A DNA stretch of 64,000 bases from assembly GCA_015067545.1 (NCBI GenBank), contig SVMG01000008.1, forward strand, positions 8,390-72,389, given 5' to 3'. The notes beneath the pieces are model-generated. The model saw nothing but the letters and a program-made list of their open reading frames with translations, did not search any database and was not told the origin of the DNA. Shown here piece by piece: positions 1 through 61,000 of the stretch. The position numbers and the translations under genes are program-made. Positions within the stretch are counted from its first letter, which is position 1. Each line of letters begins with the position of its first letter. The DNA is from Oscillospiraceae bacterium. GTDB taxonomy: Bacteria > Bacillota > Clostridia > Oscillospirales > Oscillospiraceae.

Positions 1-78
1 AGCAGCGCCCATGGGCAGGATGGACAGAACCATTGCCAGGGTCAGAACTACCGCAAAGATTTTGCTGAGTTTCTTCAT
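1..78 (-). CDS. 5' end of a secreted protein (runs off the left edge)
   Basis: Reverse strand reads AAGGAGG-N8-ATG then MKKLSKIFAVVLTLAMVLSILPMGAA, a typical Sec signal peptide; too short for the ORF track. Confidence 0.85.
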   Translation of the reverse strand, partial: MKKLSKIFAVVLTLAMVLSILPMGAA

Positions 79-320: not shown

Positions 321-1961
321 TTATTTACTGAATCTGCCGTGCATGTTGCTCTTGCGGCTACGGATGAACTCGATCACCAGCAGAACCACACCGATTACCA
401 GCAGGATGATGGCGGCAATACCGGCCCACTGCCAGGGGAAGCCGTCGGATTTTGCAGGCTCCGTGGGCTTCTGAGTTGCAGGCGGCGTGGTGGGAACTGT
501 GGTGGGCAGGGATTCTACGATCGCATCCGCCACCAGCTCCTTGGCGCAAACCGTGCAGGTGAAGAGTACCTTGCCATCCTCCAGATCCGTACCCTGATCC
601 CATGTGTGGGCTTCCACTGCGGTGGTTTCGGCACATTCCGTACAGCTCTGCCAGTGGCTCTCGTCATCGCTGTACCATGTATCTGCATAATTATGGACAT
701 GGCTCAGCTCCCGCTTAAGCACAAATCCGCATTCCTGGCAGGTCTGAGGAGTATCCGCAGTGGCCTCCGGGCCGGGAACATGATCAAACACCTGGGAGGA
801 TGCATTACAGGCAGTGCACACATTCCAGTGGCCTGCTGCATTGGCCTGCCACTCTTGTTTATAGTTGTGGGGTGCTTCCCGGATGTAGCCGCAGGTGTTG
901 CAGTTGACATCGCAGGCATTGTCATAGTCGTGCTTTGCCTTATCCTCCACATAGTAGCAGGAGGGATTCTTGCCCTGGCAGCGGTGCCAGTGGTAAGTGG
1001 AGTCAGTTGTCCACTCCGTTTCCATCACATGGGTGTGGGCAATGGCGGGCTTGATCTCGTAGTTACATACCGTGCACACCTGTGCAGATGTAGCGGTGGG
1101 TTCAGCGCCGGGAACATGCTTTTCCCAGCTGCCGGGCTTCAGCTCACCGCAGTCACACTTGTACCAGTGGGCTTCCGGGTCGGTGTTGACCAGCACATAG
1201 TTGTGGTTGGCCACCCGGGTCTCGCCGCAGCCCCGGTTACAGGTGGTGTCGCAGTCGTTGTCCCATGCATGGCCGAGTGCGTTTACATTCTCTGTCTTGG
1301 TGGTATGGCAGATGATACAGGTGTGCTCCACAGTGCCGGGATCGGTGCAGGTGGGATCGGGCTTGCCGACGCCGTCGTTCCAGTCGTGCTCCTCCAGCTT
1401 GGGTGTGCCGCACTTTTCGCAAGTTTGCTTGTGCTTGTCACCCTCCTGGGTATAGATAAACGAGCCGTCCGGATTCTTGGGGTAGGTGTGTTCGCATGCC
1501 AGTGCGATCTGCACGGAATTTGTACCCACTGTTACATCTGTGTTTTCATTTTTACATGCCGCATCACTGAATGTGATGGTGGTATTGCCGGGTGTTGCTT
1601 TCTTGACGACCAGGGTAATTTTGATCATTTCCCCGGCATAGGCACTTGCATCTTCCCAAACGGCAGTCACTTTGCCGGAATCTGCATCGAAGCTCTTGGT
1701 ATTCGCATCCACAATGGCTGCGCCCCAGGAACGGCTCTTGTATTCAAAAACCGAAGTGTCGTACTGGAGGAAGAAACCCATGGATGTATACGGTGTCGTG
1801 CCGGAGGTGCTGATGGTAATGGTCACCTCGTCGCCCAAATAGGCAGTGGTTTTGGATGCCGTGGCAGTCAAATTAAAATCTGCCGCCATTGCCGGTGATG
1901 CCAGCACAACCAACAGCATCACGCACAAAAGCATTAATAAAAACTTCTTCATTTGATTCAC
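321..1961 (-). CDS. Cell-surface protein: signal peptide, cohesin domain, His/Cys-rich repeats, PT linker, C-terminal TM anchor
   Basis: GDEVTITIS...FFLQYDTSVFEY...ITLVVKK cohesin pattern; repeated HWxxC/CxxC units; TM GIAAIILLVIGVVLLVIEFI then RSRK; start GTG 1961 or ATG 1952. Confidence 0.8.
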   Translation of the reverse strand: MNQMKKFLLMLLCVMLLVVLASPAMAADFNLTATASKTTAYLGDEVTITISTSGTTPYTSMGFFLQYDTSVFEYKSRSWGAAIVDANTKSFDADSGKVTAVWEDASAYAGEMIKITLVVKKATPGNTTITFSDAACKNENTDVTVGTNSVQIALACEHTYPKNPDGSFIYTQEGDKHKQTCEKCGTPKLEEHDWNDGVGKPDPTCTDPGTVEHTCIICHTTKTENVNALGHAWDNDCDTTCNRGCGETRVANHNYVLVNTDPEAHWYKCDCGELKPGSWEKHVPGAEPTATSAQVCTVCNYEIKPAIAHTHVMETEWTTDSTYHWHRCQGKNPSCYYVEDKAKHDYDNACDVNCNTCGYIREAPHNYKQEWQANAAGHWNVCTACNASSQVFDHVPGPEATADTPQTCQECGFVLKRELSHVHNYADTWYSDDESHWQSCTECAETTAVEAHTWDQGTDLEDGKVLFTCTVCAKELVADAIVESLPTTVPTTPPATQKPTEPAKSDGFPWQWAGIAAIILLVIGVVLLVIEFIRSRKSNMHGRFSK

Positions 1962-1988
1962 CTTATTCCTAATTTTAAAAAGTACAAC

Positions 1989-4016
1989 TTAATTGGGCAG
2001 CGGATACCTGTCAGGGAACAAAACATGGTCTAAAAGATACAGCACATCCCGATCATTGATAAATCCGTCACCATTCATATCCCCTGTTCCCTTCAGAGGA
2101 TACTTGTCGGAGAACAAAACATGGTCCAAAAGATACAGCACATCCCGGTCATTGATAAAGGTATCTCCGTTCAGATCGCCTACCAATTCCTTTTGCTCAA
2201 ACTGGGCAATATACACCGCATTGCCATCGCAGGTGGTCACGATCTCTTTATCCCAACCGCTGAAAACGTAGTAGCCGTTGCCGTCGGCGGGCTTAGTTGG
2301 ATCTTCCGGAATCTCCACAGTGTCTCCGAAAAGGTATTCCTTTTCGCTGATGACCGTTCCGTCTTCCATTTGGAAGATCACCTTCGCCTTCACGATCTGC
2401 ACCTCAAAGGTGGCTGTTTGCTCCTCATAGGTGACCGTGAGCGTGTTGGTGCCCACATTGGTATTGTCGAAGCCGGAGACCATTTCCGGGGTGATATCTA
2501 AGGTAGAAGTCGATCCATCCATATAGGTGATCAGCAGCTTACCGCCGGTGATGTCCAGCGCATCCACCTTGTGCACATAGGAAAGTTTGTCGGGTTTTTG
2601 TGTGATCTCGATGGACTGCACCGTTTGATCCGGTGACTTCACTCCCTCAAAGGTCACATAGGGCAGGGCCACCCAGCCTTCCTCGATCTTGCCCCACATC
2701 ATGCTGCCGTCGGACTTCCAATCGCTGACCAGTATCAAATCGCCCTGTTTCTTCTGTGCGCCCTCTACCAACGCATAGTCAGTACCGGCGCCGGTGCGGA
2801 CATTCAGTGTTGTGGAAGTTACCTTGCCCCACATAGGCAGATATTTGCTCAGCGCATCGTTATAATCTGTGTATTTCAGTGCGATCCACTTGTCACCGCT
2901 GCGTCCCCACAACAATCCGCCGCGGCTGACGACCTCGGCGATCTCCAGTGTCTCGCCCGGATTGGCCTTATACAAGGAATAATAATAGGTATCGGGGCCG
3001 GAGCGGACATTGACATTCTCGCCGGTCACATTCACTGTGATCTTCAGACCGCTTTCCTGCCGGGGGATGATCACCGGTGTGCCAGCCGGGGTCTTCCAGT
3101 GGGCGTACAGCACTGTGCCGGTGGGAATGCTGGAATCCAGCTGCTCCACCTTCGTGCCGCCGACCCGCTCGGTATACCAGCCGTCCAGCTCGTATGTCAC
3201 AATGGCGCCGGTCTCATCCGGGCCGGTGGGCGCGCTCTTGAACTGGGTCTTGATGGGGATGGGCAGCTCGGCATCGAAGCCGTGCTCGTCGTATTTTACC
3301 GTTCCGCCGTTGCCATCCATAAAGGCAATGCGGTAGCGATCCGGTGTTGCTTCATCTGCATACACATCCGCAGGATAGACCCCGTTTGCGTATATATTGG
3401 TTTCCACGATCCGACGGTTGACCAGAATATGCCGGTTACCTGCCATGCTCCACAGCATGATGCCATAGATGAAATGAGAACCGATATCACCGTTGATCAC
3501 CGCTGTGACCAAATTGCCGGTTGTAGAAGTCCAGGCATATCCGGTATTGTATGTAAAGGATATCAATGCGTCATATTGATGCTGAGAGAGCGTCAGATTG
3601 TGACGAGTGATGAAATTATTTACGACCTTTTCAAAGTAATCCAGTTCTCCGCGCAGAAGCTCCTCGGCATATTCCTCACTGATCTGATGGCCCTGTCCGC
3701 CATCCTCAACCTTGGAATAATACATCTCATAGCCCGCAGGGCACTTGCTGCCGTAGCCAATGCTCCACTGTTGATAATCCCAATAGGCATGGGGGTTAAA
3801 GCCCTCCAGCTGCTTGAGCACGCGGAGCAGCTCATCCGAGACCTTCATAGGCTCCTGTTCCGTCTGCGCCTGCGGCGTAGTGCTGTCCGCTGACTGGCTT
3901 TGTGGTTCCGTGCTGTCCTGGAGCTCCTCACCGGTTGCAACAGCGCCATAGGGAATCATAACAGACATGCACAGCATGATCGCTATCATTTTGACGCCTA
4001 ATTTGTTCCTGCTCAT
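1989..4016 (-). CDS. Secreted GH24 (phage-lysozyme-like) muramidase with B-repeat, two SH3b, Ig-like and C-terminal dockerin domains
   Basis: LEGFNPHAYWDYQQWSIGYG and QYDALISFTYNTG GH24 motifs; NVNVRSGP and TLNVRTGAG SH3b motifs; duplicated GDxNGDxxINDRDV dockerin loops; GGAGG before ATG 4016. Confidence 0.85.
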   Translation of the reverse strand: MSRNKLGVKMIAIMLCMSVMIPYGAVATGEELQDSTEPQSQSADSTTPQAQTEQEPMKVSDELLRVLKQLEGFNPHAYWDYQQWSIGYGSKCPAGYEMYYSKVEDGGQGHQISEEYAEELLRGELDYFEKVVNNFITRHNLTLSQHQYDALISFTYNTGYAWTSTTGNLVTAVINGDIGSHFIYGIMLWSMAGNRHILVNRRIVETNIYANGVYPADVYADEATPDRYRIAFMDGNGGTVKYDEHGFDAELPIPIKTQFKSAPTGPDETGAIVTYELDGWYTERVGGTKVEQLDSSIPTGTVLYAHWKTPAGTPVIIPRQESGLKITVNVTGENVNVRSGPDTYYYSLYKANPGETLEIAEVVSRGGLLWGRSGDKWIALKYTDYNDALSKYLPMWGKVTSTTLNVRTGAGTDYALVEGAQKKQGDLILVSDWKSDGSMMWGKIEEGWVALPYVTFEGVKSPDQTVQSIEITQKPDKLSYVHKVDALDITGGKLLITYMDGSTSTLDITPEMVSGFDNTNVGTNTLTVTYEEQTATFEVQIVKAKVIFQMEDGTVISEKEYLFGDTVEIPEDPTKPADGNGYYVFSGWDKEIVTTCDGNAVYIAQFEQKELVGDLNGDTFINDRDVLYLLDHVLFSDKYPLKGTGDMNGDGFINDRDVLYLLDHVLFPDRYPLPN

Positions 4017-4296
4017 TTTGTGTGACCTCCGGGAAATCATGTTTTTAACATTATACCAAAAGCCGTCGAATAATGCAAGGGGGATATCATCGCAAGTGAT
4101 TACAACTTGTTACCGTTTTTTGAAAGGAAAAGTCCTGATTTATCACATTTTTTCTGAATATCCCCATGTTTATTATAAAAATAAGTTCAAGTGACATAAT
4201 ATTTTTTCCAAATATTTCTTTGGCGCGAAAAATATTTGATTTCCCCGGTCCTTTATGGTAAACTGGACTACACTAACAAAAGGAGGGATGCCCGGA

Positions 4297-43521: not shown

Positions 43522-46500
43522 TTAGTTTTGCACGTAAGGATCATTCGCATCCGTGGTGATGTAGATCTCGTCGATCTGCACACCTGCAGTGTAGCCTCTG
43601 AAGCGCAGGGTATAGGCTTCACCGGCCTTCCAGTTGTAAACTCTGTCCGCACCCACCTGCGCTGTCGTATCAATCCGCTGATATACACGGACCCAGTAGA
43701 AATCTGTCTTGCCCTGGGAATATGTTCCATCCGCCTTCTTCAGGGACTGACGCCAGAAGTAGGTATCCGTTGCTTCGCCTTCCGCATTCATTCCGTCGAT
43801 CCAGCAGAAAACAGCATCGCCGCCGGCCCAGCTAACCGAATTGGGCGCATAGACCTTCAGCCAAATGTAGTATTCACCGGTCTGATCCGGGATTACACTG
43901 AAGGAGGCATGTGCGTTCGGAAATACGCCTTCCACCTCGGTCAATGTACCATTCACCAGGGTTCGATTGAGGGACAGTGCGTAGTAATTTGTATGCGTCC
44001 AGTTGAAGTACAGCGTTGCGCCGGCCGATGCCGCGGAATTGGCCTTTACTTTGGCAGGTGCATCTGTACTATTGGTGGTTACATTTTCCATGCCCGGTGC
44101 TGCGATCACTGCATTTTCACCCTGCAGAGTGCCCTTGCCGTTTGTCAACTTCACCGGTTCCAGCATGTTACAGACAGAGCAGTAACCATTGACAAAACTG
44201 TGGTTGCCCACATTGGCCTTGTCGCCGCAGACACATTGATGCCAGTGCTGTGTTCCGTCGAATGTCCAACTCTCGTTGAAGGTGCAGATATGCGCAGGAC
44301 GGACATAGCCGCAGTCATTGCAGGTAGTGTCCTTCAGATTGTCATAGATGTGTTCTGCCTTGCCGTTTATCAGCTCGTCATGGCCACAGTTTGCCTTGTG
44401 CCAGTGATAGGTCTCATCCTTTTCCCAGGCAGCGCTGAAGGAGTGGTTGTGAGGAGCATCATTGGGATCATTGGTGATATAGATCTCGTCGATCTGCACG
44501 CCTGCAGTGTAGCCTCTGAAGCGCAGGGTATAGGCTTCACCGGCCTTCCAGTTGTAAGCTCTGTCCGCACCCACCTGTGCTGTCGTATCAATCCGCTGAT
44601 ATACACGGACCCAGTAGAAATCTGTCGCGCCCTGGGAATATGTTCCATCCGCCTTCTTCAGGGACTGACGCCAGAAGTAGGTGTCCGTTGCCTTGCCTTC
44701 CTCATTTGTACCGTCGATCCAGCAGAAAACTGCGTCGCCGCCGGCCCAGCTAACCGAATTGGGTGCATAGACCTTCAGCCAAATGTAGTATTCACCGGTC
44801 TGATCCGGGATTACACTGAAGGAGGCATGTGCGTTCGGAAATACGCCTTCCACCTCGGTCAATGTACCATTCACCAGGGTTCGATTGAGGGACAGTGCGT
44901 AGTAATTTGTATGCGTCCAGTTGAAGTACAGCGTTGCGCCGGCCGATGCCGCGGAATTGGCCTTTACTTTGGCAGGTGCATCTGTACTATTGGTGGTTAC
45001 ATTTTCCATGCCCGGTGCTGCGATCACTGCATTTTCACCCTGCAGAGTGCCCTTGCCGTTTGTCAACTTCACCGGTTCCAGCATGTTACAGACAGAGCAG
45101 TAACCATTGACAAAACTGTGGTTGCCCACATTGGCCTTGTCGCCGCAGACACATTGATGCCAGTGCTGTGTTCCGTCGAATGTCCAACTCTCGTTGAAGG
45201 TGCAGATATGCGCAGGACGGACATAGCCGCAGTCATTGCAGGTAGTGTCCTTCAGATTGTCATAGATGTGTTCTGCCTTGCCGTTTATCAGCTCGTCATG
45301 GCCACAGTTTGCCTTGTGCCAGTGATAGGTCTCATCCTTTTCCCAGGCAGCGCTGAAGGAGTGGTTGTGAGGAGCATCATTGGGATCATTGGTGATATAG
45401 ATCTCGTCGATCTGCACGCCTGCAGTGTAGCCTCTGAAGCGCAGCGTGTAGGTCTCCCCGGCAGTCCAGTTGTAAACTCTGTCCGCACCCACCTGCGTTG
45501 TCGTATCAATCCGCTGATATACACGGACCCAGTAGAAATCTGTCGCGCCCTGGGAATATGTTCCATCCGCCTTCTTCAGGGACTGACGCCAGAAGTAGGT
45601 GTCCGTTGCTTCGCCTTCCGCGTTCATGCCGTCGATCCAACAGAAAACAGCATCGCCGCCGGCCCAGCTAACCGAATTGGGCGCATAGACCTTCAGCCAA
45701 ATGTAGTATTCACCGGTCTTATCCGGGATTACATTGAAGGAAGCGTGCGTGCTCGGCAGCATGCCATCCAGAGTCTGATTGTTGAACAATTTGGCATAAT
45801 CCGTATGGTTTCTGTTGAAGTGCAGTGTTGCGCCACCCGATGCAGCAGCATTGGTCTTCACTGTGGCAGGTGCATCTGTATAGTCGCTGATCACGTTTTC
45901 CATGCCAGGCGCTGCCACTGCTGCATGTTCGCCCTGCAAGGTTCCTCTGCCGTTTGTCAGCTTCAGCGGCTCCATCATATTACAGACAGAACAGTAGCCA
46001 TTTGCAAAGCTGTGGCTGCCCACATTGGTCTTTTCACCGCAGGCACATTGGTGCCAGTGCTGGGTGCTGTTAACGCTCCAGCGCTCGCTGAAGGTGCAAA
46101 CATGCTCAGGACGGACATAGTTACAATCGTTACAGGTGGTGTCCTTCAGATTATCATAGTTATGCTTGGCCTTACCGGTGATCATGCCCGTATGGCAGGA
46201 GGACGTCCACCAGTGATAGGTGTCATCATAGCTCTTCAGAGAATTCCAGGTGTGATTATGCGGCACATCGCTTGCGCTGTTTGTGATGTAGATCTGATCC
46301 ACCCGGACACCGGCTACTGTTCCTCTGAAGCGCAGAGCATAGGTCTGCCCGGCAGTCCAGTTATAGGTATGGTCCGCAAACTTTTCTGTATTTTGTTTCC
46401 ATTCCTGGTTCAGGCACACCCAGATGTAATCCCCTTCACCCTTGGAGTATCCGTTCAATGCCAGCGGCTGACGCCAGTAGTAGGTATCCGAACCGCCATC

Positions 46501-49500
46501 CACATATGCATAGATATATGCACCATAGGACGCATTCGCGGGGGCGTACACCTTCAGCCAGATGTAGTATCGCCCGGTCCTTTCAGGCGTTACCAGTACG
46601 CTCAGGTGCGGGATCGGTGTTGTGCCTTGATCCGGGAATGTATTCCAGCCGGAATTCGTTCTGACGAACTGCACAGCCTTACCGCCCTCTGCTTCGGCAC
46701 TTTCCACAACCTTAACAACAGCGCCTGTGTAATCAGGAATATGGTTTTCCTTACCGTCCGGTGCAAGCATCAAATTTTCTGCTTCCAATGTCAGCTTTCC
46801 GCCGGAGATCGTAAAGGGTGCCAGGCCGCCGCAGATGGTACACTTGCCGTCTGCATAATTGTGGGGCGCATAATTGGGATTCTTGTAGCCGCAGGTATTG
46901 CATTCCTTATCCGTATGATCCTCAAAGAAATGCTCAGCGTAAGCTCTGGGGGCTACATTCTGGCATCCACAGGTGGCATCGAACCAGTGATGGGTATCAT
47001 TGCCGTTCCATGTGCTGCTGTAGGAATGGTTATGCGGTGCGTCCTTCGGATCGTTGGTGATCAGAATTTCGTCCACCTTTACGCCAACAGACATGCCTCT
47101 GAGACCGATGGTATAGACTCTGCGGGCTTTCCAGTGATAGGAATGCTCTTTATGCAGACCCGCTGCCATGCTCGTGTACTCCTGATACAGTCTGACCCAG
47201 ATGTAATCCTCTTCGTCTGCAGAGTAGGTCTCCATAGTCAACGGCTGCTGCCAGAAATAGTAGTCGTCACCGCCGTCGATCCAGGCGTAGATAAATGTAC
47301 CCTTCGGTGCATAAAGCTTGACCCAGATATAGTACTCGCCGCCTTCATCCGGCATCACTTGGAAACTCAGATGCGGTGTTGCTTCCGAAGTGGCATTCGC
47401 CAATTGATTCCATGCACTGTGCTGTCTCATAAAGCGAACTGCCTTACCGCCTGCCGCACCAGCGCTTTCCACAACCGCTGCAACTTCACCCTTGTAATAG
47501 CTATTCAGATCGGTAGCATCCAAAATGACCGTTTCCTCACCTGCAGGCTGCAGCTTTGCCTCTTCTGCCTGAACGGTGATCTTACCGCCACTGGTCTTGA
47601 ATACGCCCTGCGGCAATTCACAGGTTGTGGTAAACGAGCCAAAGGTTACACCCTTGGAGCAGGTCTTGATGCGCACGTAGATGGACTCAGCAGCCTGAAT
47701 GTTCACCTCTCCCAGCTTAATCTTGACATACTGGTTTGCCGACACTGCGGCAACCTCACTCAGGTCGCACAGGGTGTATTTAAAATCGTCATCATTTGCA
47801 GAAATTGCATAGAAGAACTGATCATTACTCAGACTGCTTACCTTAACGGTGGCATAGATGGAGTAGATACCACTGGTATCCGTAAGGATATTCAGGGACA
47901 GATCACCGGGCAGATTCTTCGTGCTCAGCACATAGTCCTTGTAGGCCTCGCTTACAGTACCGTCCGCAGAAACAGACTGCAAACGCGCATCATTTCCGGA
48001 GGCTTTCGCCATAGAATGCTCATAAATGGTATCCTTGGCATTGACAGATACGATACCGCTGGTGCTGGTCTTCTTGCTGTAGCAAGCTTCATAAGGCACA
48101 TAGCTTGCATCGGGCGAGACTATGAAGCAGTCAAAGACAAGACCTTCACATCCGGAGATCACGGACAGGGTGTATGCCTCTCCAGACGTCCACTTAGCCA
48201 GTGCAGTTTGATCCTCATACTGACCCAGCTTGATCCATACGTAACCATCCTTATCTTTCTTACCTACATTGATTTTTTCAGGATAGTAGGTATTGCCGGT
48301 CACGCCGTCAATGTTGACCCAGATGGTATCCCCGGAGGTCACCTTGGATGCATTGACCTTAGCCCAAATGTAATGCACCGCTGTGCGCCTTGGGATAAAG
48401 GTGGCAGAGAGTTGCGGTTTCGCTGCATCCACCGTACCGGGATTGGTGGTATATCCCACATTGGAAATGACCACTTCACGACCGGACGCATTGTTATCCT
48501 GTTCCACCTTTACCGTGTCTTCCTTGTTAAAGCATTCTGCCTCAGCAAGCAATGTTTGACCGATAACCTCGGCACCGTTGGGATCGATGACTGCTTTCTG
48601 CAGGAAGATGATTTCCGTCACGATGCTCCAGCCATTGTCAATTGTGGAATTCTGCTTACCGGAAGTCATATATCTGTAGCGGCCATGGCCGACAAATTTG
48701 ACATATCTGGCCTCTTCGCTCATGGGCAGCGTCAGATAAGTATTCAGCCATGTATAACGCCCCACTTCGCCTGATTGCGCTTTATCGTAAACCGTCTCCC
48801 AGTTTACACCGTCCGTGGATACTAAGAGATCAAAGATGTAATTACTGTAGGCACTCTCATCGCCCCAGAAATAGAGAACAACGTCTGTCAGCTGAATGGT
48901 CTTGCCGAAATCAAAAATTGCTTCACAGATGTTATTTCCGGATTTCTGACTGGTCCAGCGGGTGGTAATATCACCATCCAGCGCTTGAATCACGGGCAGG
49001 GTGGAGTATCCGTTGTCGATGACCGCCTCTACCTGCGCCGCAGTGGGGAACTTGTACAGAATTTCATCAGACAGTAAAGGAACATTGTTGTCAATATTTA
49101 CCGTAACACGAATGCGGTTAATGAAACGGTCATAATACATGGAACCCTCGACCAGCTTCATAAGTGTCGTCGAATCCATCAACAGATCACCGGCCGCCGC
49201 ACGGATCTCGTTGAATGCAACCGATTCCCCGTTAGCTGTCAAGGAATTGGCGGTTATGACATAGACAACACCCTTGTACCGAACTGTATAAGCAGTTTTG
49301 TCCTTATTCCAGGAACCCTTGCCGTTCAGTGCATCAAAAATGACGGTAACGGGGAACAGGTAATCCTCACCGGACTTCACGGGATGTGCATCGGTATAAT
49401 AGTAGAAATTGTTGATCATGATTCCGATGGGCTCTTCTTCCACGATCGGAGTCTCATCAAAGGTCTTATTGCTTTCGGATCCGGAACGAACCAGTTTCAC

Positions 49501-52500
49501 AGTGCCGGCTGCAGCCTCAAAGTAGATCATACCGCCCTCTTCGGAGGCAATCTGCGTGCCAACGGACTTGCCATCCACATAAACAGTCCAAGTACCGGCC
49601 TGCAGACCTGCTACATTGACCTTGAAAGTGCTGTAGCCTTCGTTCTGAGGAATCGTGAAGGAAACATCACTGCTGATGCGGTGGTTGCCGTCCATATTGA
49701 ACATGGCAACATGGTTCATCAGCTGTGCGCCCATGACTACGCCCTTGCCGTCGTAGATCAGTTTTGCAGGGATAACCGTAGCATCACCGTCTGCATCTCC
49801 CACATACATGACATTGAGCATATAGTCGGTTTGTTCTTCAACCGTAGTGGTTGTACTGATTTCCACACGGCCCCAGCCGGACTCCTCACACAACGTGCTT
49901 TCAAAGGTTCCGCTAAGTGCATAGTTATAGTTACCCACAACAAATTCTTTGCTGGGACCACCGATCTTGGTGATCGTGTAAGCATCGTCCTTTTGGGTGG
50001 CAGTACCAACATACAGCACCTGATTGGTGAGCATGCCGTTATAATCGCCCTCTGTATTTTTAATGACGATCGTGTTGCCGTCCACTTCCGGCTCGGATTG
50101 CATATGCAGCAAGAAGCTCTTCTTGGAGCCCACCAAACTGGTCTTGATCTGATCAAAGACCACAAATGCACCGGGATGCTCTGTATTGCCGTCCAGCTCC
50201 AGATTCAGGAACAGCATGCTTCTGACTGCTTCCTGCGCATTTGTATCGGTAGCGGTACGGTAGGACGCTGCAATGTCGCCGGCAAGATAGGAGTATTCCG
50301 GCTTATAGATGTTCGGGCCGAACTCATGTCCAAGCACAGAGTTGACGACTCTGTTTATGCCGTCCACGCCCCAGTCAGGATCCGAAGCCGTAACCTGCGT
50401 GCCGTAGCGATTTTGGGGAGAGGTAATGGTTAGCGTATTATGGGCAATGGAAGTGGTCACATAATACTGATGATGGGGCAGGCGTACCGTTCCCGTATAC
50501 ATGCCTGAATCGCTGGCCAAAATACCTTTATAATAGATTTGGAAGTGGCCCGCATCGCGATGCTGGTGGATGGTTGCAAATACAGATGTCAGCTGCATTC
50601 TTGCAATCACATCGTTGGAGTCAATGCCCATATCCCAACCTGTCCGGGCCGTCATGGAGCCGGAAGGTATATCAAAATACTGGGTGTAAGGCAGATCCGA
50701 ATACTTCTTCGTCTCGACCTCCGGATCGAAGACTGTCAGCACCTCGATGAAATCTCTCGTGTCGAACGCAAGGTTGCTCAATTCCCTAGACACGCGAAGC
50801 AGAATTCCATCTTTGTAGAAGCTGCCGGCGCGAGCAAAATGGTCTGCATTTTCACTCCAAAGCGTGCCCTTATTGGTTTGATTTTCCTCCCAGGTGTCAC
50901 CTTCACGGAGGAACTGACCGTCAGGACGCAGCGAATACAGCAAGCCATAGGAAATGCTGCGGAAGCTTTCAGGATTCATCGCTACATAGCCATCTGCCTT
51001 ACCATCTCCGTCCCGGTCGTTGTCACCGCCGGTCATGCTGTAGAGATCCAACTGGCATATCAGATCGGAATCATGACGTCCACCGGCACCGTAGCTGGCA
51101 CCCTGATGGTGAATTCCGGCAACATTCCACGCATTTCTGCTGGAGGGGAACATCTCGAACCACCAGCCGGCGATCACCTCATACATGGAAGGATATTCGT
51201 CGTACATAGCAATTGCGACTGCCATCCAGTATTGCTGAATCAGCGGGCCGCCATGATGGCCTGTAACGGTACCAGCCAAAGAGCCCAATTCTACAGGCCA
51301 GCCGGCTTCATTCAATGCGCCAAGCCACTGTGCACGGTCAGCCAGATACTGTTTGTCTTCGTAGGTCAGCAGATCATAGCACCAGTCGTAGACTTCTGCC
51401 AAAGTCATCTGGCAGTAGCCCAAATAGTATGTATTCTGACCACCGTCCATAGGCGGGAAGCGCACAGTTTCTGCCAATTTCTTGCACGCACGCACCGCTA
51501 TTTTTCCGTAGTATTGCGCCATATGCGCCTTTTTCGAATCCTCACTATCCTTATATAGTGCATAATACAGTGCTTTTGCACGTATCGAGAAGACTTTATC
51601 GGTGCTGTAGTTGGTTTTCAGATAGGTGACGTTGCCATCATCATCTACCGTTTTCTCGGGCTCGCTCAATACACCGTTAAAGGTCATGCCCAACAGCCGG
51701 AAGAATTCATTCGCCAGCCCGGCGCACTCCTCCGACTCCAGCGTCTTAACAATGCGGGGAATATCCTCCTGAACAAACCGCAGTCTGGGATGCTCACCAA
51801 CAGTCGGTGTGACAAGGGGTGCTGCAAATTCCTCCCATGTCAGATTAGACATAGAGCTATACATGGCCTCGACGACGGTCTCAGTCTGATCCGCCATCTC
51901 GTAGGTCATGGTGGCAGTGGCCTCATACTCCTTGCCATCGACAATGAATTTGACCGAGGCATTGAGCACATTGTCATCGCCCATGATCATGTCGCCGATG
52001 TTCAGGCCTGCGGCACTTACATCCACTGCAGGAATGCAGGGCAGCAGCATGCCCAGGGAAAGCACCAGGGCAATGCAGGAAATAACACCTCTGCGCTTCA
52101 GGATCAAAAATACGATGCCGCCGATGCCCGCAAGGGCCAGCACGATCAAAATGATCAGCACCGCGATCTGACCGCCGGGAACGCCCTCACCCTCATTTGT
52201 ATCCGAGGGAGTCTCCTCCGGCTGGGTGCTGGGAGTGGTGGACTCGGGGTCCTGGGGTTCTTCCGGAGGATCCACGATCTTCATCAGCCGGTAATTGATG
52301 ACTGCCCGCTCACCCACCTCCACGGTCCGGGTGCCGGTAGCCTCGCCCGCCAAAAGTGTCAGCTCTCCCCCGGGGATCGTTGCATCCCAGGAGATATTGG
52401 CCAGCTTCATATTGGTATTATAGTTTTTTGCCAGTAAAAGGATCTGGATTTCTTCGTTCACATCGTATTCCTGCTTGGATGTGACGATCTCAAAGGTCAT

Positions 52501-52605
52501 TCCGTCTCCGGCCGCATATTCTGCTGCCGCAGTGGTCACGGCAAACAATGTGACCAACGCCACAGCTGCCACGAGCAATGTTCTGAGAATCTTGTTTTTC
52601 TTCAT
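43522..52605 (-). CDS. 3027-aa multimodular heparinase II (PL21)-like polysaccharide lyase A
   Basis: HPRL, TGHHG, HQGASYG, LRPDGQFLREGD, ARTGW, HQHRDAGHFQIYYKG, IAHNTL, FGPNIYKPEYSYLAGDI match heparinase II as recalled; then a Cu-amine-oxidase-N-like domain, an F5/8-type C domain, seven beta-sandwich modules and His/Cys spacers. Confidence 0.85.
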   Translation of the reverse strand: MKKNKILRTLLVAAVALVTLFAVTTAAAEYAAGDGMTFEIVTSKQEYDVNEEIQILLLAKNYNTNMKLANISWDATIPGGELTLLAGEATGTRTVEVGERAVINYRLMKIVDPPEEPQDPESTTPSTQPEETPSDTNEGEGVPGGQIAVLIILIVLALAGIGGIVFLILKRRGVISCIALVLSLGMLLPCIPAVDVSAAGLNIGDMIMGDDNVLNASVKFIVDGKEYEATATMTYEMADQTETVVEAMYSSMSNLTWEEFAAPLVTPTVGEHPRLRFVQEDIPRIVKTLESEECAGLANEFFRLLGMTFNGVLSEPEKTVDDDGNVTYLKTNYSTDKVFSIRAKALYYALYKDSEDSKKAHMAQYYGKIAVRACKKLAETVRFPPMDGGQNTYYLGYCQMTLAEVYDWCYDLLTYEDKQYLADRAQWLGALNEAGWPVELGSLAGTVTGHHGGPLIQQYWMAVAIAMYDEYPSMYEVIAGWWFEMFPSSRNAWNVAGIHHQGASYGAGGRHDSDLICQLDLYSMTGGDNDRDGDGKADGYVAMNPESFRSISYGLLYSLRPDGQFLREGDTWEENQTNKGTLWSENADHFARAGSFYKDGILLRVSRELSNLAFDTRDFIEVLTVFDPEVETKKYSDLPYTQYFDIPSGSMTARTGWDMGIDSNDVIARMQLTSVFATIHQHRDAGHFQIYYKGILASDSGMYTGTVRLPHHQYYVTTSIAHNTLTITSPQNRYGTQVTASDPDWGVDGINRVVNSVLGHEFGPNIYKPEYSYLAGDIAASYRTATDTNAQEAVRSMLFLNLELDGNTEHPGAFVVFDQIKTSLVGSKKSFLLHMQSEPEVDGNTIVIKNTEGDYNGMLTNQVLYVGTATQKDDAYTITKIGGPSKEFVVGNYNYALSGTFESTLCEESGWGRVEISTTTTVEEQTDYMLNVMYVGDADGDATVIPAKLIYDGKGVVMGAQLMNHVAMFNMDGNHRISSDVSFTIPQNEGYSTFKVNVAGLQAGTWTVYVDGKSVGTQIASEEGGMIYFEAAAGTVKLVRSGSESNKTFDETPIVEEEPIGIMINNFYYYTDAHPVKSGEDYLFPVTVIFDALNGKGSWNKDKTAYTVRYKGVVYVITANSLTANGESVAFNEIRAAAGDLLMDSTTLMKLVEGSMYYDRFINRIRVTVNIDNNVPLLSDEILYKFPTAAQVEAVIDNGYSTLPVIQALDGDITTRWTSQKSGNNICEAIFDFGKTIQLTDVVLYFWGDESAYSNYIFDLLVSTDGVNWETVYDKAQSGEVGRYTWLNTYLTLPMSEEARYVKFVGHGRYRYMTSGKQNSTIDNGWSIVTEIIFLQKAVIDPNGAEVIGQTLLAEAECFNKEDTVKVEQDNNASGREVVISNVGYTTNPGTVDAAKPQLSATFIPRRTAVHYIWAKVNASKVTSGDTIWVNIDGVTGNTYYPEKINVGKKDKDGYVWIKLGQYEDQTALAKWTSGEAYTLSVISGCEGLVFDCFIVSPDASYVPYEACYSKKTSTSGIVSVNAKDTIYEHSMAKASGNDARLQSVSADGTVSEAYKDYVLSTKNLPGDLSLNILTDTSGIYSIYATVKVSSLSNDQFFYAISANDDDFKYTLCDLSEVAAVSANQYVKIKLGEVNIQAAESIYVRIKTCSKGVTFGSFTTTCELPQGVFKTSGGKITVQAEEAKLQPAGEETVILDATDLNSYYKGEVAAVVESAGAAGGKAVRFMRQHSAWNQLANATSEATPHLSFQVMPDEGGEYYIWVKLYAPKGTFIYAWIDGGDDYYFWQQPLTMETYSADEEDYIWVRLYQEYTSMAAGLHKEHSYHWKARRVYTIGLRGMSVGVKVDEILITNDPKDAPHNHSYSSTWNGNDTHHWFDATCGCQNVAPRAYAEHFFEDHTDKECNTCGYKNPNYAPHNYADGKCTICGGLAPFTISGGKLTLEAENLMLAPDGKENHIPDYTGAVVKVVESAEAEGGKAVQFVRTNSGWNTFPDQGTTPIPHLSVLVTPERTGRYYIWLKVYAPANASYGAYIYAYVDGGSDTYYWRQPLALNGYSKGEGDYIWVCLNQEWKQNTEKFADHTYNWTAGQTYALRFRGTVAGVRVDQIYITNSASDVPHNHTWNSLKSYDDTYHWWTSSCHTGMITGKAKHNYDNLKDTTCNDCNYVRPEHVCTFSERWSVNSTQHWHQCACGEKTNVGSHSFANGYCSVCNMMEPLKLTNGRGTLQGEHAAVAAPGMENVISDYTDAPATVKTNAAASGGATLHFNRNHTDYAKLFNNQTLDGMLPSTHASFNVIPDKTGEYYIWLKVYAPNSVSWAGGDAVFCWIDGMNAEGEATDTYFWRQSLKKADGTYSQGATDFYWVRVYQRIDTTTQVGADRVYNWTAGETYTLRFRGYTAGVQIDEIYITNDPNDAPHNHSFSAAWEKDETYHWHKANCGHDELINGKAEHIYDNLKDTTCNDCGYVRPAHICTFNESWTFDGTQHWHQCVCGDKANVGNHSFVNGYCSVCNMLEPVKLTNGKGTLQGENAVIAAPGMENVTTNSTDAPAKVKANSAASAGATLYFNWTHTNYYALSLNRTLVNGTLTEVEGVFPNAHASFSVIPDQTGEYYIWLKVYAPNSVSWAGGDAVFCWIDGTNEEGKATDTYFWRQSLKKADGTYSQGATDFYWVRVYQRIDTTAQVGADRAYNWKAGEAYTLRFRGYTAGVQIDEIYITNDPNDAPHNHSFSAAWEKDETYHWHKANCGHDELINGKAEHIYDNLKDTTCNDCGYVRPAHICTFNESWTFDGTQHWHQCVCGDKANVGNHSFVNGYCSVCNMLEPVKLTNGKGTLQGENAVIAAPGMENVTTNSTDAPAKVKANSAASAGATLYFNWTHTNYYALSLNRTLVNGTLTEVEGVFPNAHASFSVIPDQTGEYYIWLKVYAPNSVSWAGGDAVFCWIDGMNAEGEATDTYFWRQSLKKADGTYSQGKTDFYWVRVYQRIDTTAQVGADRVYNWKAGEAYTLRFRGYTAGVQIDEIYITTDANDPYVQN
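43557..45700. repeat. 918-bp (306-aa) intragenic tandem repeat, about 2.3 copies
   Basis: Near-identical blocks start at 43557, 44475 and 45393; identical antisense ORFs at 44003 and 44921 are 918 bp apart. Confidence 0.95.
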
Positions 52606-58082: not shown

Positions 58083-61000
58083 TTATTCTGCAGAAACAAT
58101 TCCGCTAGGGGTGTAGTTTGCATCGGTAGTGATTACAAACTGGTCAATCACACATACACTCTTATTTGTTGTAGTTGCGATCTTGATATGATATTCGTTT
58201 CCAGCAGTCCAAACCGGAGTCACAGTAAGTTTCTGCCAACCAATGGTTGTGCTACTTTCATCGAGTGTAGTAGTAGCAAAGCCGACATATCGATAGCCCG
58301 TTTTACCGGTTGTTGGATCCTTTTCATTATAACCGATATCATCAGCCCACTCATCGCCAGAAACCCAAACATTGCAACCTCCGCCTGAGCTACGATAGCC
58401 CATACGGACCCAAATGTAATATGTGCCGCTTTCATTGGGATTGACAACTGCGTCAATACTTGCTTCGACAGAATCCGTACCATCCAAGGCAGATGCATTG
58501 TCATTCTTTGTAGAAAGATGCACAACATAACCGCCGCTGGCTTCGGCATTCTCTTTCTTGGTCGCATAAGTGGTGCTTGCCTGCCAAGCCTCTGCCTCGA
58601 TTACCGCATGGCCGTTCACTGTACTGGCGGCCTCGCGAGCACCGCAGGTGCAGACCCCGTTGGTAAACACGTGAACATGTCTTTCCGCACCGCAGGTATT
58701 GCAGGTTGTGTCCGCATCGTCGGTGAATACATGCTCGCCCTTTTCGGACACCTGGTCGGCATGCTCGCAGGTTGCGGCATGCCAATGGTGGGTGTCGTTC
58801 GTGGTCCACTGGGTGGAGAAAGTATGCTCATGGTTTTTCACATATGGGTCGTTTAGGTCAGTACTGATATAAATCTGGTCAATCAAATTGCCTGTTGCAA
58901 AATTTCTCAGATTTACTGTATAGGTTTCTCCGGCAGTCCAGAAATAGGCCTTATCAATCTTATAATAATCATCCCGATTCAGTAGGACCCATTCCCATTC
59001 ACTGCTTTGGGTCGTAACCTGCTTCCAGTAGTAGGTATCTGTGGGCTGGCCGTTCTCATCGTTGCCTTGGATATAGCAATACATGCCCGTTCCCTTTGTT
59101 CTGACCCAAATGTAGTACTGTGCAGTCGTATCTGCTGTCACTGCTACGGAAATGTGCGGGATTGCAGTTAGGCCTGCATTTTTCATTGTAGGTGCATAAC
59201 TGAGACCACGGTTGGCTTTTACATAAGTCACGCCGTCGGCAGTGCCTACATCCACCACATCATTCCAAAATACACTGCCATTCATAATGACATTTTCCGT
59301 ACCATTTTCAGCCAGATTTGCATTTTCAGCTTCCACGGACAGTTTACCGCCGGACATTTCCATAGGTTGCAACATTGAGCATCCTGTGCAGACCCGGTTC
59401 TCAAAGGTATGCTGGGCGTAGTCTTTCCTGTCACCGCAGAGACATTCGTGCCAGTGGTGGGTAGTATTGTAACTCCAGGCATCGGCATACACATGCTCAT
59501 GTGCAGGTCTTTCATAGCCACAATCGGAGCAAATGGTGTCGAGAATTGTCTCATAGTTGTGTTCGGCCTTGCCGGAGATCAACTCGACATGATCGCAGGT
59601 TGCCTTGTGCCAGTGGTGCGTAGCATCCTTCTCCCATTCACTGCTGAAGGTATGATTGTGAGGAGTATCCCCAGGATCATTGGTGATATAAATCTCATCA
59701 ACCTGTACACTGGAGTTGTGAGCGCGGAAGCGCAACGTGTACATCTCACCGGCCGTCCAGGTATAGACCTTATCCGAACCGTTCTGAGGATACATACCAC
59801 CGGTACTGTAGGTGTCCTGCATGAATTCCTGATATACTCTGACCCAATAGAAATCCGACGTATTTTCGGAATAACTTCCGTCTGCCTTCTTCAACGGCTG
59901 ACGCCAGTAGTAACTGTCATTTCCTCCGTCAATGTACGCATACAGCGCATTATTCGTACTACTGGAAGGAGCATATACCTTCAACCAAATGTAGTACTCG
60001 CCGCTTGCATCCGGAATCACGGAGAACATCATATGCGGATACGGATCAAAACCGGCCGACTTCATGCCAGATGCATTGGTATATCCTCTGTTGACCTTGA
60101 CTGCTGTGCCGTTGGCAGTAACAGACATTACCTGCGTCGGATAGAACTGCGTGGAATTAGAGGGATCCATGATGTAGTTTTCTGTTCCAGCCGGTGCCAA
60201 AGTGGTATTTTCGGCCTGAACAGTCAATTTACCGCCGCTGGTATTGAAGGGTTTGCCAACATTACAGGTAGTACAAGCAACTGCATCAAAGCTGTGCGTA
60301 CTGTAATCTGCCTTATCGCCGCAAGCACATTCATGCCAGTGGTGCGTAGCATTGTAGCTCCAGGTTCCGCTGTACACATGCACATGGTCGGGTCTGACAT
60401 GGCCGCAATCATTACAGGTGGTGTCCAACAGATTATCGTAGGTGTGTTCAAACTTCGCTACAATCTTATCAGTATGCTCACAAGTTGCCTTACGCCAGTG
60501 GTAGGTATCGTCCTTTTCCCAACTGGTGCTGTAAGTGTGGTTATGCGGGATGTCCTGAGCACTGTTGGTGATATAAATCTGATCCACGCGTACACCAGCA
60601 ACTGTTCCTCTGAAGCGCAGAGCGTAAGTCTGGCCTGCCGTCCAATTGTATGTATGATCGGCAAACTTCGTGGTAGTGCTCTGATATTCTTCGGATATGC
60701 GAACCCAGAAGTAGTCCATCTCACCCTGAGAATAACCGTTTAAATCCAGAGGTTGACGCCAGTAGTAGGTGTCGGAACCGCCCTCAATATAGGCATACAA
60801 CGCCGCACCGTACCTAGCATTTTCAGGAGCATACACCTTCAGCCAGATGTAGTATTCACCGCTCTTGTCTGGGGTCACCAAAGCACTTACGTGCGGGATC
60901 GGTGTGGTTCCTGCTTTCAAGAAGCTGTTCCAAGCAGAATTGGTCTTTGTAAACTGTACTGCCTTGCCGCCTTCTGCATCAGCGCTCTCCACAACCTTAA

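Follow-up and report, generated by a model that had tools for sequence, protein, structure and literature searches.

Several bacteria are known to attach cell-wall hydrolases to cohesins. The cellulosome of Ruminococcus champanellensis has a dockerin-bearing GH25 lysozyme (Morais et al. 2016, Environ Microbiol 18:5112, as cited in PMC6403190), and further cell-wall hydrolases with dockerins (Bensoussan et al. 2017) are cited in the same article, as is the idea of a 'lyticome'. In R. flavefaciens, RflaF_05439, which combines two NlpC/P60 modules with an X-dockerin, is reported to bind the sortase-anchored cohesin of ScaE (PMC3573020). Transmembrane (TM)-anchored single-cohesin proteins are predicted in Ruminococcus spp. 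(R. difficilis, HUN007 and JE7B6; PMC13463774), a genus that also provides the amylosome scaffoldins of R. bromii (PMC4611034). Here we describe a pair of adjacent genes from an uncultured Faecousia species (Oscillospiraceae) of the bovine or faecal gut. The pair lies in a 64,000-nucleotide (nt) stretch of DNA (GenBank assembly GCA_015067545.1, contig SVMG01000008.1, positions 8,390 to 72,389), hereafter the window. Gene 1 encodes a secreted putative GH24 muramidase that ends in a dockerin, and gene 2 a cohesin carried on a Cys/His-rich stalk and a TM anchor. Our preferred interpretation, to which we assign a probability of about 0.75, is that this bicistronic operon tethers the lysozyme to the surface of the producing cell through the dockerin and cohesin, and that the cell's own wall is its most likely target.

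The R. champanellensis enzyme resembles the gene 1 product in being a secreted peptidoglycan hydrolase with a C-terminal dockerin, held by a cohesin on the surface of a Gram-positive gut anaerobe, an arrangement that is predicted for our locus. The R. champanellensis lysozyme is one of many dockerin proteins sharing the multi-cohesin scaffoldins of a fibre-degrading cellulosome, whereas here we find a single dockerin, an adjacent gene for the one-cohesin anchor, GH24 in place of GH25, and no cellulosome. RflaF_05439 and ScaE likewise provide a putative wall-active hydrolase docked to a monovalent cell-surface anchoring cohesin, docking that is predicted in our case. ScaE, however, is coupled covalently to peptidoglycan through sortase and serves as anchor for the entire cellulosome too, while the anchor here is a TM helix below a Cys/His stalk; nor does PMC3573020 describe the two R. 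flavefaciens genes as an exchangeable adjacent pair. These Ruminococcus proteins share with gene 2 a monovalent cohesin, a C-terminal membrane helix and an origin in the Oscillospirales, but the parts of those descriptions at hand place them in many-dockerin starch or fibre systems and mention neither a Cys/His stalk nor a dedicated adjacent cargo gene. Dockerin-tagged wall hydrolases and TM-anchored single cohesins in Ruminococcus are thus already known; the new elements here are a specificity cassette that can be swapped and a stalk whose fold is unmatched in the PDB. Cohesin and dockerin have mostly been studied as the glue of cellulosomes, and this locus would represent their reduction to one dedicated pair serving the cell's only GH24 wall hydrolase.

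Dockerin and cohesin modules of the gene pair

Gene 1 and gene 2 are co-oriented on the minus strand of the window, to which all coordinates refer unless stated otherwise. Pfam residue numbers for gene 1 count from an upstream ATG at 4040.

1989-4016, minus: gene 1, secreted putative GH24 muramidase with C-terminal dockerin; 675 amino acids (aa) from the ATG at 4016
321-1952, minus: gene 2, TM-anchored cohesin with a Cys/His stalk; 543 aa, starting with the ATG at 1952
1992-2186, minus: dockerin, two repeats 85% identical to each other (Pfam PF00404 Dockerin_1, residues 621-670, 25.3 bits)
1953-1988, minus: intergenic spacer of 36 nt, containing AAGGTG before the gene 2 ATG (sequence; crossed by RNA contigs)
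1884-1952, minus: predicted signal peptide of gene 2, MKKFLLMLLCVMLLVVLASPAMA followed by ADF (sequence; M, K, K and A26 invariant in homologs)
1497-1883, minus: cohesin module, a beta-sandwich (Pfam PF00963, residues 33-143, 35.9 bits)

The initial annotation, made from the letters of the window, had called gene 1 a secreted GH24 muramidase with SH3b domains and a C-terminal dockerin, and gene 2 a single-cohesin protein with a C-terminal TM anchor. Both calls held up, the first through matches to Pfam PF00959, SH3_3 and PF00404 and the second through PF00963 and a conserved TM helix (Pfam cut-offs, 22.9 bits for Dockerin_1 and 24.1 bits for Cohesin). The order of domains in gene 1 is signal peptide, GH24, Flg_new, two SH3b, Big_3, a second Flg_new-like domain and dockerin; that in gene 2 is signal peptide, cohesin, stalk, Pro/Thr linker, one TM helix and a 13-aa tail.

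Because the two genes lie in a common reading frame, translation through the TAA stop of gene 1 gives a natural fusion of dockerin, 36-aa linker and cohesin. We modelled this 239-aa read-through fusion with AlphaFold2 (AF2), using an alignment of six natural fusions from relatives together with unpaired homolog fragments. Both modules were predicted with high confidence (predicted local distance difference test, pLDDT, >90) and the linker with low confidence (<50). The predicted template modelling score (pTM) of 0.79 suggests that dockerin and cohesin are confidently placed relative to each other.

The dockerin has the hallmarks of type I, namely a duplicated segment of ~22 residues in which an EF-hand-like calcium loop (D-x-N/D-x-D ... 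D at position 12) precedes a helix. The loop is intact in each repeat (DLNGDTFINDRD and DMNGDGFINDRD), the helices span H17-28 and H49-60 in the model (pLDDT >90), and sequence matches in the PDB include 6kg9, 3ul4 and 4dh2. Dockerin halves are on average 77% alike within one protein versus 46% between proteins. The concerted evolution that these identities indicate is as expected for a symmetric module with a dual binding mode.

For the cohesin, AF2 predicted about 10 strands (pLDDT about 95) in the beta-sandwich (jelly-roll) fold of ~140 residues that typifies the family. When the fusion model was compared with the PDB by Foldseek, the top 50 matches were all cohesins, with probability 1.0 and target-normalised TM scores of 0.6-0.76. 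This removes the concern, raised at the outset, that the N-terminal domain of gene 2 might not be a true cohesin. Among the matches were non-cellulosomal cohesins from glycoside-hydrolase complexes of Clostridium perfringens (2jh2, 2vo8, 2w1n) and from Archaeoglobus fulgidus (2xdh), which share the fold; those pairs differ from ours in carrying host-glycan hydrolase and toxin cargo, with no membrane stalk and no lysozyme. A phmmer search of gene 2 against the PDB returned antibody leader peptides only, via the signal peptide, and was disregarded as meaningless.

Start sites and transcription

The ATG at 4016, which the initial annotation had also chosen, is most likely the start of gene 1, judging from the GGAGG nine bases ahead of it; the alternative ATG at 4040 would lengthen the protein by 8 aa. 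For gene 2, the previously proposed GTG at 1961 gives way to the ATG at 1952 as the most likely start, because all gene 2 homologs share an MKK N-terminus and, in a near-identical locus (L020), a TAA stop separates the two candidate codons. The lysozyme gene does lie directly upstream of the cohesin gene, as had been stated, with a spacer of 36 nt rather than 27 nt. Inspection of this 36-nt sequence revealed no terminator, and candidate signals flank the pair.

4050-4078, minus: sigma-70-type promoter, TTGCAT (4078-4073), 17-nt spacer and TATAAT (4055-4050), as read from the sequence
271-293, minus: strong intrinsic terminator downstream of gene 2, a 9-bp stem with 7 G-C pairs followed by TTTTTT (sequence)

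Assembled RNA contigs from four bovine-gut metatranscriptomes cover both genes. The junction between the genes is crossed by contigs in three of the four (1175-2084, 1351-2003 and 1635-2106; 1-5 mismatches). Contig ends fall at ~334 and at 4021/4022 (four metatranscriptomes), and none of the four shows any RNA depth at 148-294 or 4117-4263. This pattern fits one expressed bicistronic mRNA.

The common reading frame is a wider feature of these loci. In 9 of the 12 lysozyme-type loci, the dockerin and cohesin genes are in one frame with one or two stop codons between them (1953-1991 in the window, with equivalents in L007, L008, L018-L020, L022, L025 and L026). The shared frame probably reflects inheritance of a few cassette types. 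Stop-codon read-through from gene 1 into gene 2 was considered and not adopted, since gene 2 comes with a Shine-Dalgarno sequence, a start codon and a signal peptide of its own.

Dockerins and cohesins in the genome and in relatives

In this 1.8-Mb genome (97.5% complete), the gene 1 dockerin was the only one recovered, both by Pfam and when the open reading frames of all six frames were scanned for an EF-loop pattern loose enough to find the known gene 1 dockerin. One strong cohesin, that of gene 2, is present. A cellulosome or amylosome, in which a large set of dockerin-bearing carbohydrate-active enzymes gathers on multi-cohesin scaffoldins, is thus not seen in the genome-wide census, which yields one dockerin and one strong cohesin, with a peptidoglycan hydrolase as cargo.

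Close loci come from Faecousia sp. and Oscillospiraceae metagenome-assembled genomes (MAGs), and metagenomes of faeces and of the bovine gut contain DNA of the locus. Among 36 same-genus genomes, 35 encode GH24-SH3b proteins, many of which lack a dockerin. At loci that do have the dockerin, the very next gene encodes cohesin, stalk and TM helix, and mnmA is often adjacent (G010, G026, G009, L018, L019, L020-L026 and L077; mnmA-adjacent synteny was seen in G010, G026, L018, L019 and L077). The adjacency of the two genes is therefore kept across the genus, answering the question of linkage that the initial annotation had left to a synteny survey. The order of dockerin gene then cohesin gene recurs with other cargo, namely BspA-type leucine-rich repeat (LRR) proteins and a transglutaminase-like protein. 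We counted 30 cohesin modules in the genus; for at least 21 of them, a dockerin is encoded no more than ~0.5 kb away, in some cases in the same polypeptide. Metagenomes contain >200 full-length gene 2 homologs, none informatively named.

These surroundings bear on whether the locus could be the remnant of a prophage lysis cassette, with a leftover endolysin that has no cellular role. GH24 is mainly a phage family, and gene 1 matches the 'endolysin' family phrog_7 (E=2e-26). The protein nevertheless carries a signal peptide and six accessory domains, is expressed in vivo and keeps its catalytic motif in 21 orthologs. Its neighbours are housekeeping genes (adjoining mnmA, then proS, a methyltransferase, a phosphoesterase and DUF1643), its position beside mnmA is conserved across the genus, and no holin or phage structural gene was found by PHROG and gene annotation within about 10 kb on either side, in line with what had been noted initially. 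With no PHROG structural or holin match among the neighbours and with chromosomal synteny kept, the locus lacks the features of a phage lysis cassette, which has a holin or spanin and further phage genes alongside and sits in a prophage, and we give a remnant origin, contradicted by synteny and context, practically no credence. Throughout the genus, the gene for the GH24-SH3b enzyme belongs to the core and keeps its synteny, and it is not a recent phage capture; descent from a domesticated endolysin, as first suggested, is plausible.

Co-variation and exchange of dockerin and cohesin

We compared distance matrices over 21 gene pairs by Mantel tests.

Dockerin versus cohesin: r=0.85, p=1e-4
Dockerin versus GH24, within one protein: r=0.28
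Cohesin versus stalk, within one protein: r=0.40
GH24 versus stalk, in different proteins: r=0.83
Dockerin versus cohesin given stalk (partial Mantel): r=0.83, p=1e-4

It follows from this pattern that dockerin and cohesin evolve as a unit, uncoupled from the proteins that carry them. DNA identity profiles locate the unit precisely. Between loci L077 and L023, identity is 96-100% over mnmA, lysozyme gene, stalk and downstream sequence, and only a single block of ~700 bp, which comprises dockerin, spacer, signal peptide and cohesin, drops to ~50%. The block starts ~70 codons before the gene 1 stop, where the dockerin starts, and ends ~155 codons into gene 2, where the cohesin ends. The cassette in the window is 98% identical to one embedded in a backbone of only 77-79% identity, and at least six dockerin classes, each with a matching cohesin class, are found on near-identical backbones. 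The corresponding element in the window is:

1497-2186, minus: contiguous specificity cassette of dockerin, spacer, signal peptide and cohesin (Mantel tests, DNA identity profiles)

These data support the view that relatives swap the dockerin-to-cohesin cassette as one block. Breakpoints that coincide with the module boundaries argue for selection for matched pairs, while falling short of proof. Because the DNA for plug (dockerin) and socket (cohesin) is exchanged between relatives as a single block, we regard the locus as a private surface tether and not a cellulosome. The dedicated two-gene tether envisaged initially thus gains weight from the sole dockerin of the genome, the single transcription unit, the adjacency in relatives and the joint swap. 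Conserved adjacency, the AF2 fusion model, and co-variation with swapping together support cognate binding between dockerin and cohesin as the predicted function.

In polymorphic toxin systems such as CdiA-CT/CdiI and Rhs, a variable C-terminal tip and the adjacent downstream gene are exchanged as a unit. The cassette here appears analogous in that the variable region runs from the 3' end of one gene into the beginning of its neighbour and is swapped between near-identical loci. The variable parts differ in being a predicted binding pair rather than a toxin and its immunity protein.

A more speculative extension is that the dockerin-to-cohesin junction is a hot-swappable specificity cassette under diversifying selection, with plug (3' end of gene 1) and socket (5' end of gene 2) set back-to-back such that one recombination event re-keys the tether. 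Each Faecousia strain would then have a private attachment code, and LRR and transglutaminase-like cargo would be re-keyed in the same way. We offer this tentatively, as a possibility with somewhat less than even odds. If true, the cassette would be a protein-docking analogue of toxin-tip and immunity-gene exchange, and its existence would point to conflict among co-resident strains, or to exclusivity, over whose wall hydrolase is held. Cassette classes on near-identical backbones also constitute a panel of possibly orthogonal pairs for specificity studies and designer protein display.

The muramidase and its likely target

The remaining features of gene 1 are as follows.

3936-4016, minus: predicted signal peptide, MSRNKLGVKMIAIMLCMSVMIPYGAVA followed by TGEE (sequence; putative cleavage site)
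3408-3815, minus: GH24 (T4-lysozyme-type) catalytic domain (Pfam PF00959, residues 76-211, 69.6 bits)
3099-3329, minus: Flg_new (Listeria-Bacteroides repeat) domain (Pfam PF09479, residues 238-314)
2631-3017, minus: two bacterial SH3 (SH3b) wall-binding domains (Pfam SH3_3, residues 342-378; phrog_1794 matches the second copy)
2397-2627, minus: Big_3 Ig-like domain (Pfam PF07523, residues 493-548; sequence matches to PDB 2l7y and 4fd0)
2190-2387, minus: second Flg_new-like domain (sequence pattern, residues 552-617; PF09479, precomputed, in homologs)

The second SH3b domain lies at residues ~404-470, based on sequence and the PHROG match. The catalytic residues of GH24 enzymes are Glu, Asp and Thr/Ser, corresponding to E11, D20 and T26 of T4 lysozyme; here they are present as Glu in LEGF, Asp in YWD and Ser in WSIGYG, which align to EG, D and WTIG of the PDB lysozymes 9kbq and 6et6. 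All 21 orthologs examined retain the motif, nearly all with Ser and one with Thr. By these sequence features, the assignment of gene 1 as a putative GH24 muramidase is confirmed. No second match to the enzyme was found elsewhere in the genome, making it single-copy with no paralog.

We propose the following mechanism. The gene 2 product would be a type-I membrane protein, with its C-terminal helix in the membrane and with a rigid-looking, probably zinc-stabilised stalk and Pro/Thr linker that raise a single cohesin through or above the wall. The gene 1 product would be secreted, and its calcium-dependent dockerin would plug into this cohesin, keeping the cell's only GH24 enzyme on the producer's surface instead of letting it diffuse away. 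Peptidoglycan would then be within reach of the SH3b domains and of the catalytic domain, which lies about six domains away from the plug; the most likely target is the peptidoglycan of the cell's own wall, during turnover or daughter-cell separation. Replacement of the dockerin-cohesin DNA block as a unit would keep plug and socket matched, and would make the tether specific to a strain or lineage. We favour remodelling of the own wall because the gene is core, single-copy and syntenic. Such a pair would suggest how uncultured gut Firmicutes keep an autolysin local, and raises the idea of surface enzymes private to a strain.

The same docking could instead present the muramidase outward, as a short-range weapon against neighbouring bacteria or for harvesting peptidoglycan fragments; cassette diversity would then reflect strain conflict, for instance avoidance of capturing a rival's enzyme on one's own cohesin. 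The catalytic domain does sit at the far end of a multi-domain arm atop a long stalk, the genome is small (1.8 Mb), and the cassette turns over fast even between near-identical strains, reminiscent of the module swapping of toxin tips and immunity genes. However, no immunity-like or inhibitor gene is evident within the operon, and the only GH24-SH3b protein of the genome, core and syntenic in 35 of 36 congeners, looks like a housekeeping autolysin. SH3b domains, moreover, usually bind the producer's own type of peptidoglycan. On balance we consider an outward role unlikely, and retain tethering of the enzyme for work on the producer's own wall.

Several points weigh against this interpretation. 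The dockerin and cohesin DNA is contiguous, and for this reason the co-variation could stem from linkage within recombination tracts, with no functional coupling. The fusion model was judged from pTM and pLDDT alone, with no non-cognate control. The metatranscriptome contigs are strandless and may include DNA. Binding of dockerin to cohesin is a prediction, and its calcium dependence, like the geometry of the stalk and the biological role, is something we infer; the argument for the own wall draws solely on the core, syntenic and single-copy status of the gene. Finally, a 2451-aa Big_4 protein encoded on contig 7 ends in a second, weak cohesin-like domain (19 bits in context). This last observation allows a reading in which the adjacent modules are not partners, the dockerin binding the contig 7 domain or a wall polymer and the cohesin taking another ligand, and there are precedents elsewhere for dockerins and cohesins with non-canonical partners. 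We consider it very improbable, as it must contend with the proximity of the only dockerin and only strong cohesin of the genome (36 nt apart, on one transcript), with co-variation at r=0.85 and a joint swap with module-exact breakpoints, and with the AF2 placement at pTM 0.79; the contig 7 domain itself is 29% identical to the gene 2 cohesin, over 68 aa only.

The Cys/His stalk and membrane anchor

Below the cohesin, gene 2 encodes the following elements.

540-1496, minus: Cys/His stalk, ~320 aa (invariant columns in 94 homologs)
441-539, minus: Pro/Thr-rich linker (sequence; AF2 pLDDT <50)
363-440, minus: predicted transmembrane helix FPWQWAGIAAIILLVIGVVLLVIEFI (sequence; conserved in homologs)
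324-362, minus: predicted 13-aa cytoplasmic tail RSRKSNMHGRFSK (R534, S535, N539, G542 and S545 invariant in the closer homolog set)

The stalk contains 26 conserved Cys and 17 conserved His (43 in total) at regular spacing, nearly all invariant across the 94 homologs, with HWxxCxxCx8H, CxxCx9HxH and CDxxCxxCGxxRx3H as recurring motifs. Their number would suffice for about 11 four-ligand sites, probably for zinc; the residues could alternatively form disulfides. For comparison, each small beta-hairpin module of zinc-ribbon or zinc-knuckle repeat proteins holds zinc by way of four Cys/His ligands. A heme c site was considered for one stretch (CIICH) and rejected, CxxCH not being kept in homologs. 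AF2 predicted short beta-hairpins only (pLDDT 87, pTM 0.39), a result that fits a chain of small beads. Foldseek found no fold match for the stalk in the PDB; the best TM score, 0.13, came from spurious beta-propellers. With this score and a root-mean-square deviation >40 Å against globular proteins, the model is very elongated, and an extended rod is predicted. The Cys/His stalk of the initial annotation is thus real and conserved. No Pfam or NCBIfam family model matched it.

The stalk repeat also occurs in many gut Clostridia MAGs. It may represent a new extracellular fold of zinc beads, widespread in these organisms. As a protein module, it is conserved, confidently predicted and without structural match, and it recurs in giant surface enzymes across gut Clostridia. 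Heparinase II C-terminal and F5/8 type C domains are found in two giant secreted proteins of the window (43522-52605, minus, 3027 aa; and 58083-63998+, minus, at least 1971 aa), which also have stalk-type Cys/His repeats inside them at ~44200-46270 and ~59430-60560. TM anchoring of these giants was rejected, as neither has a C-terminal TM helix. One gene 2 homolog (P0106) has extra Cys/His repeats in place of the cohesin head; therefore the stalk-TM module also exists alone. The anchor tail (RSRKxNMHGKFSK) and TM helix are better conserved than the cohesin, a possible sign of interaction with something in the cytoplasm or at the membrane.

Related loci and neighbouring genes

Other arrangements of these modules were seen in relatives. 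One locus (L010, G014:C46, 3263-7083) is a two-cargo kit in which two dockerin genes, for a 685-aa transglutaminase-like protein and a 288-aa protein, precede one short, stalkless cohesin-TM gene. In some congeners, cohesin is directly followed by dockerin in one polypeptide of ~560-1000 aa (G004:C1:131464-132015, G008:C8:23723-24271, G036:C2:79578-80126 and G006:C135:3815-10463, the G006 locus having several such proteins in a row). An adaptor-like or self-linking role at the cell surface is possible for these proteins.

As had been noted initially, a further secreted protein follows, starting at position 78 and extending past the edge of the window. It has 245 aa with a signal peptide and a C-terminal TM helix, occupies 1-78 (minus) and continues into G000:C16 7730-8467 (L004), and sits directly 3' of the terminator. 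It had no family match. A syntenic homolog in L018 is 39% identical overall, with nearly identical ends and a diverged middle. A second wall enzyme, with choline-binding repeats and a VanY D-Ala-D-Ala carboxypeptidase domain, is encoded ~8 kb past the left window edge (G000:C16 618-1931, L004).

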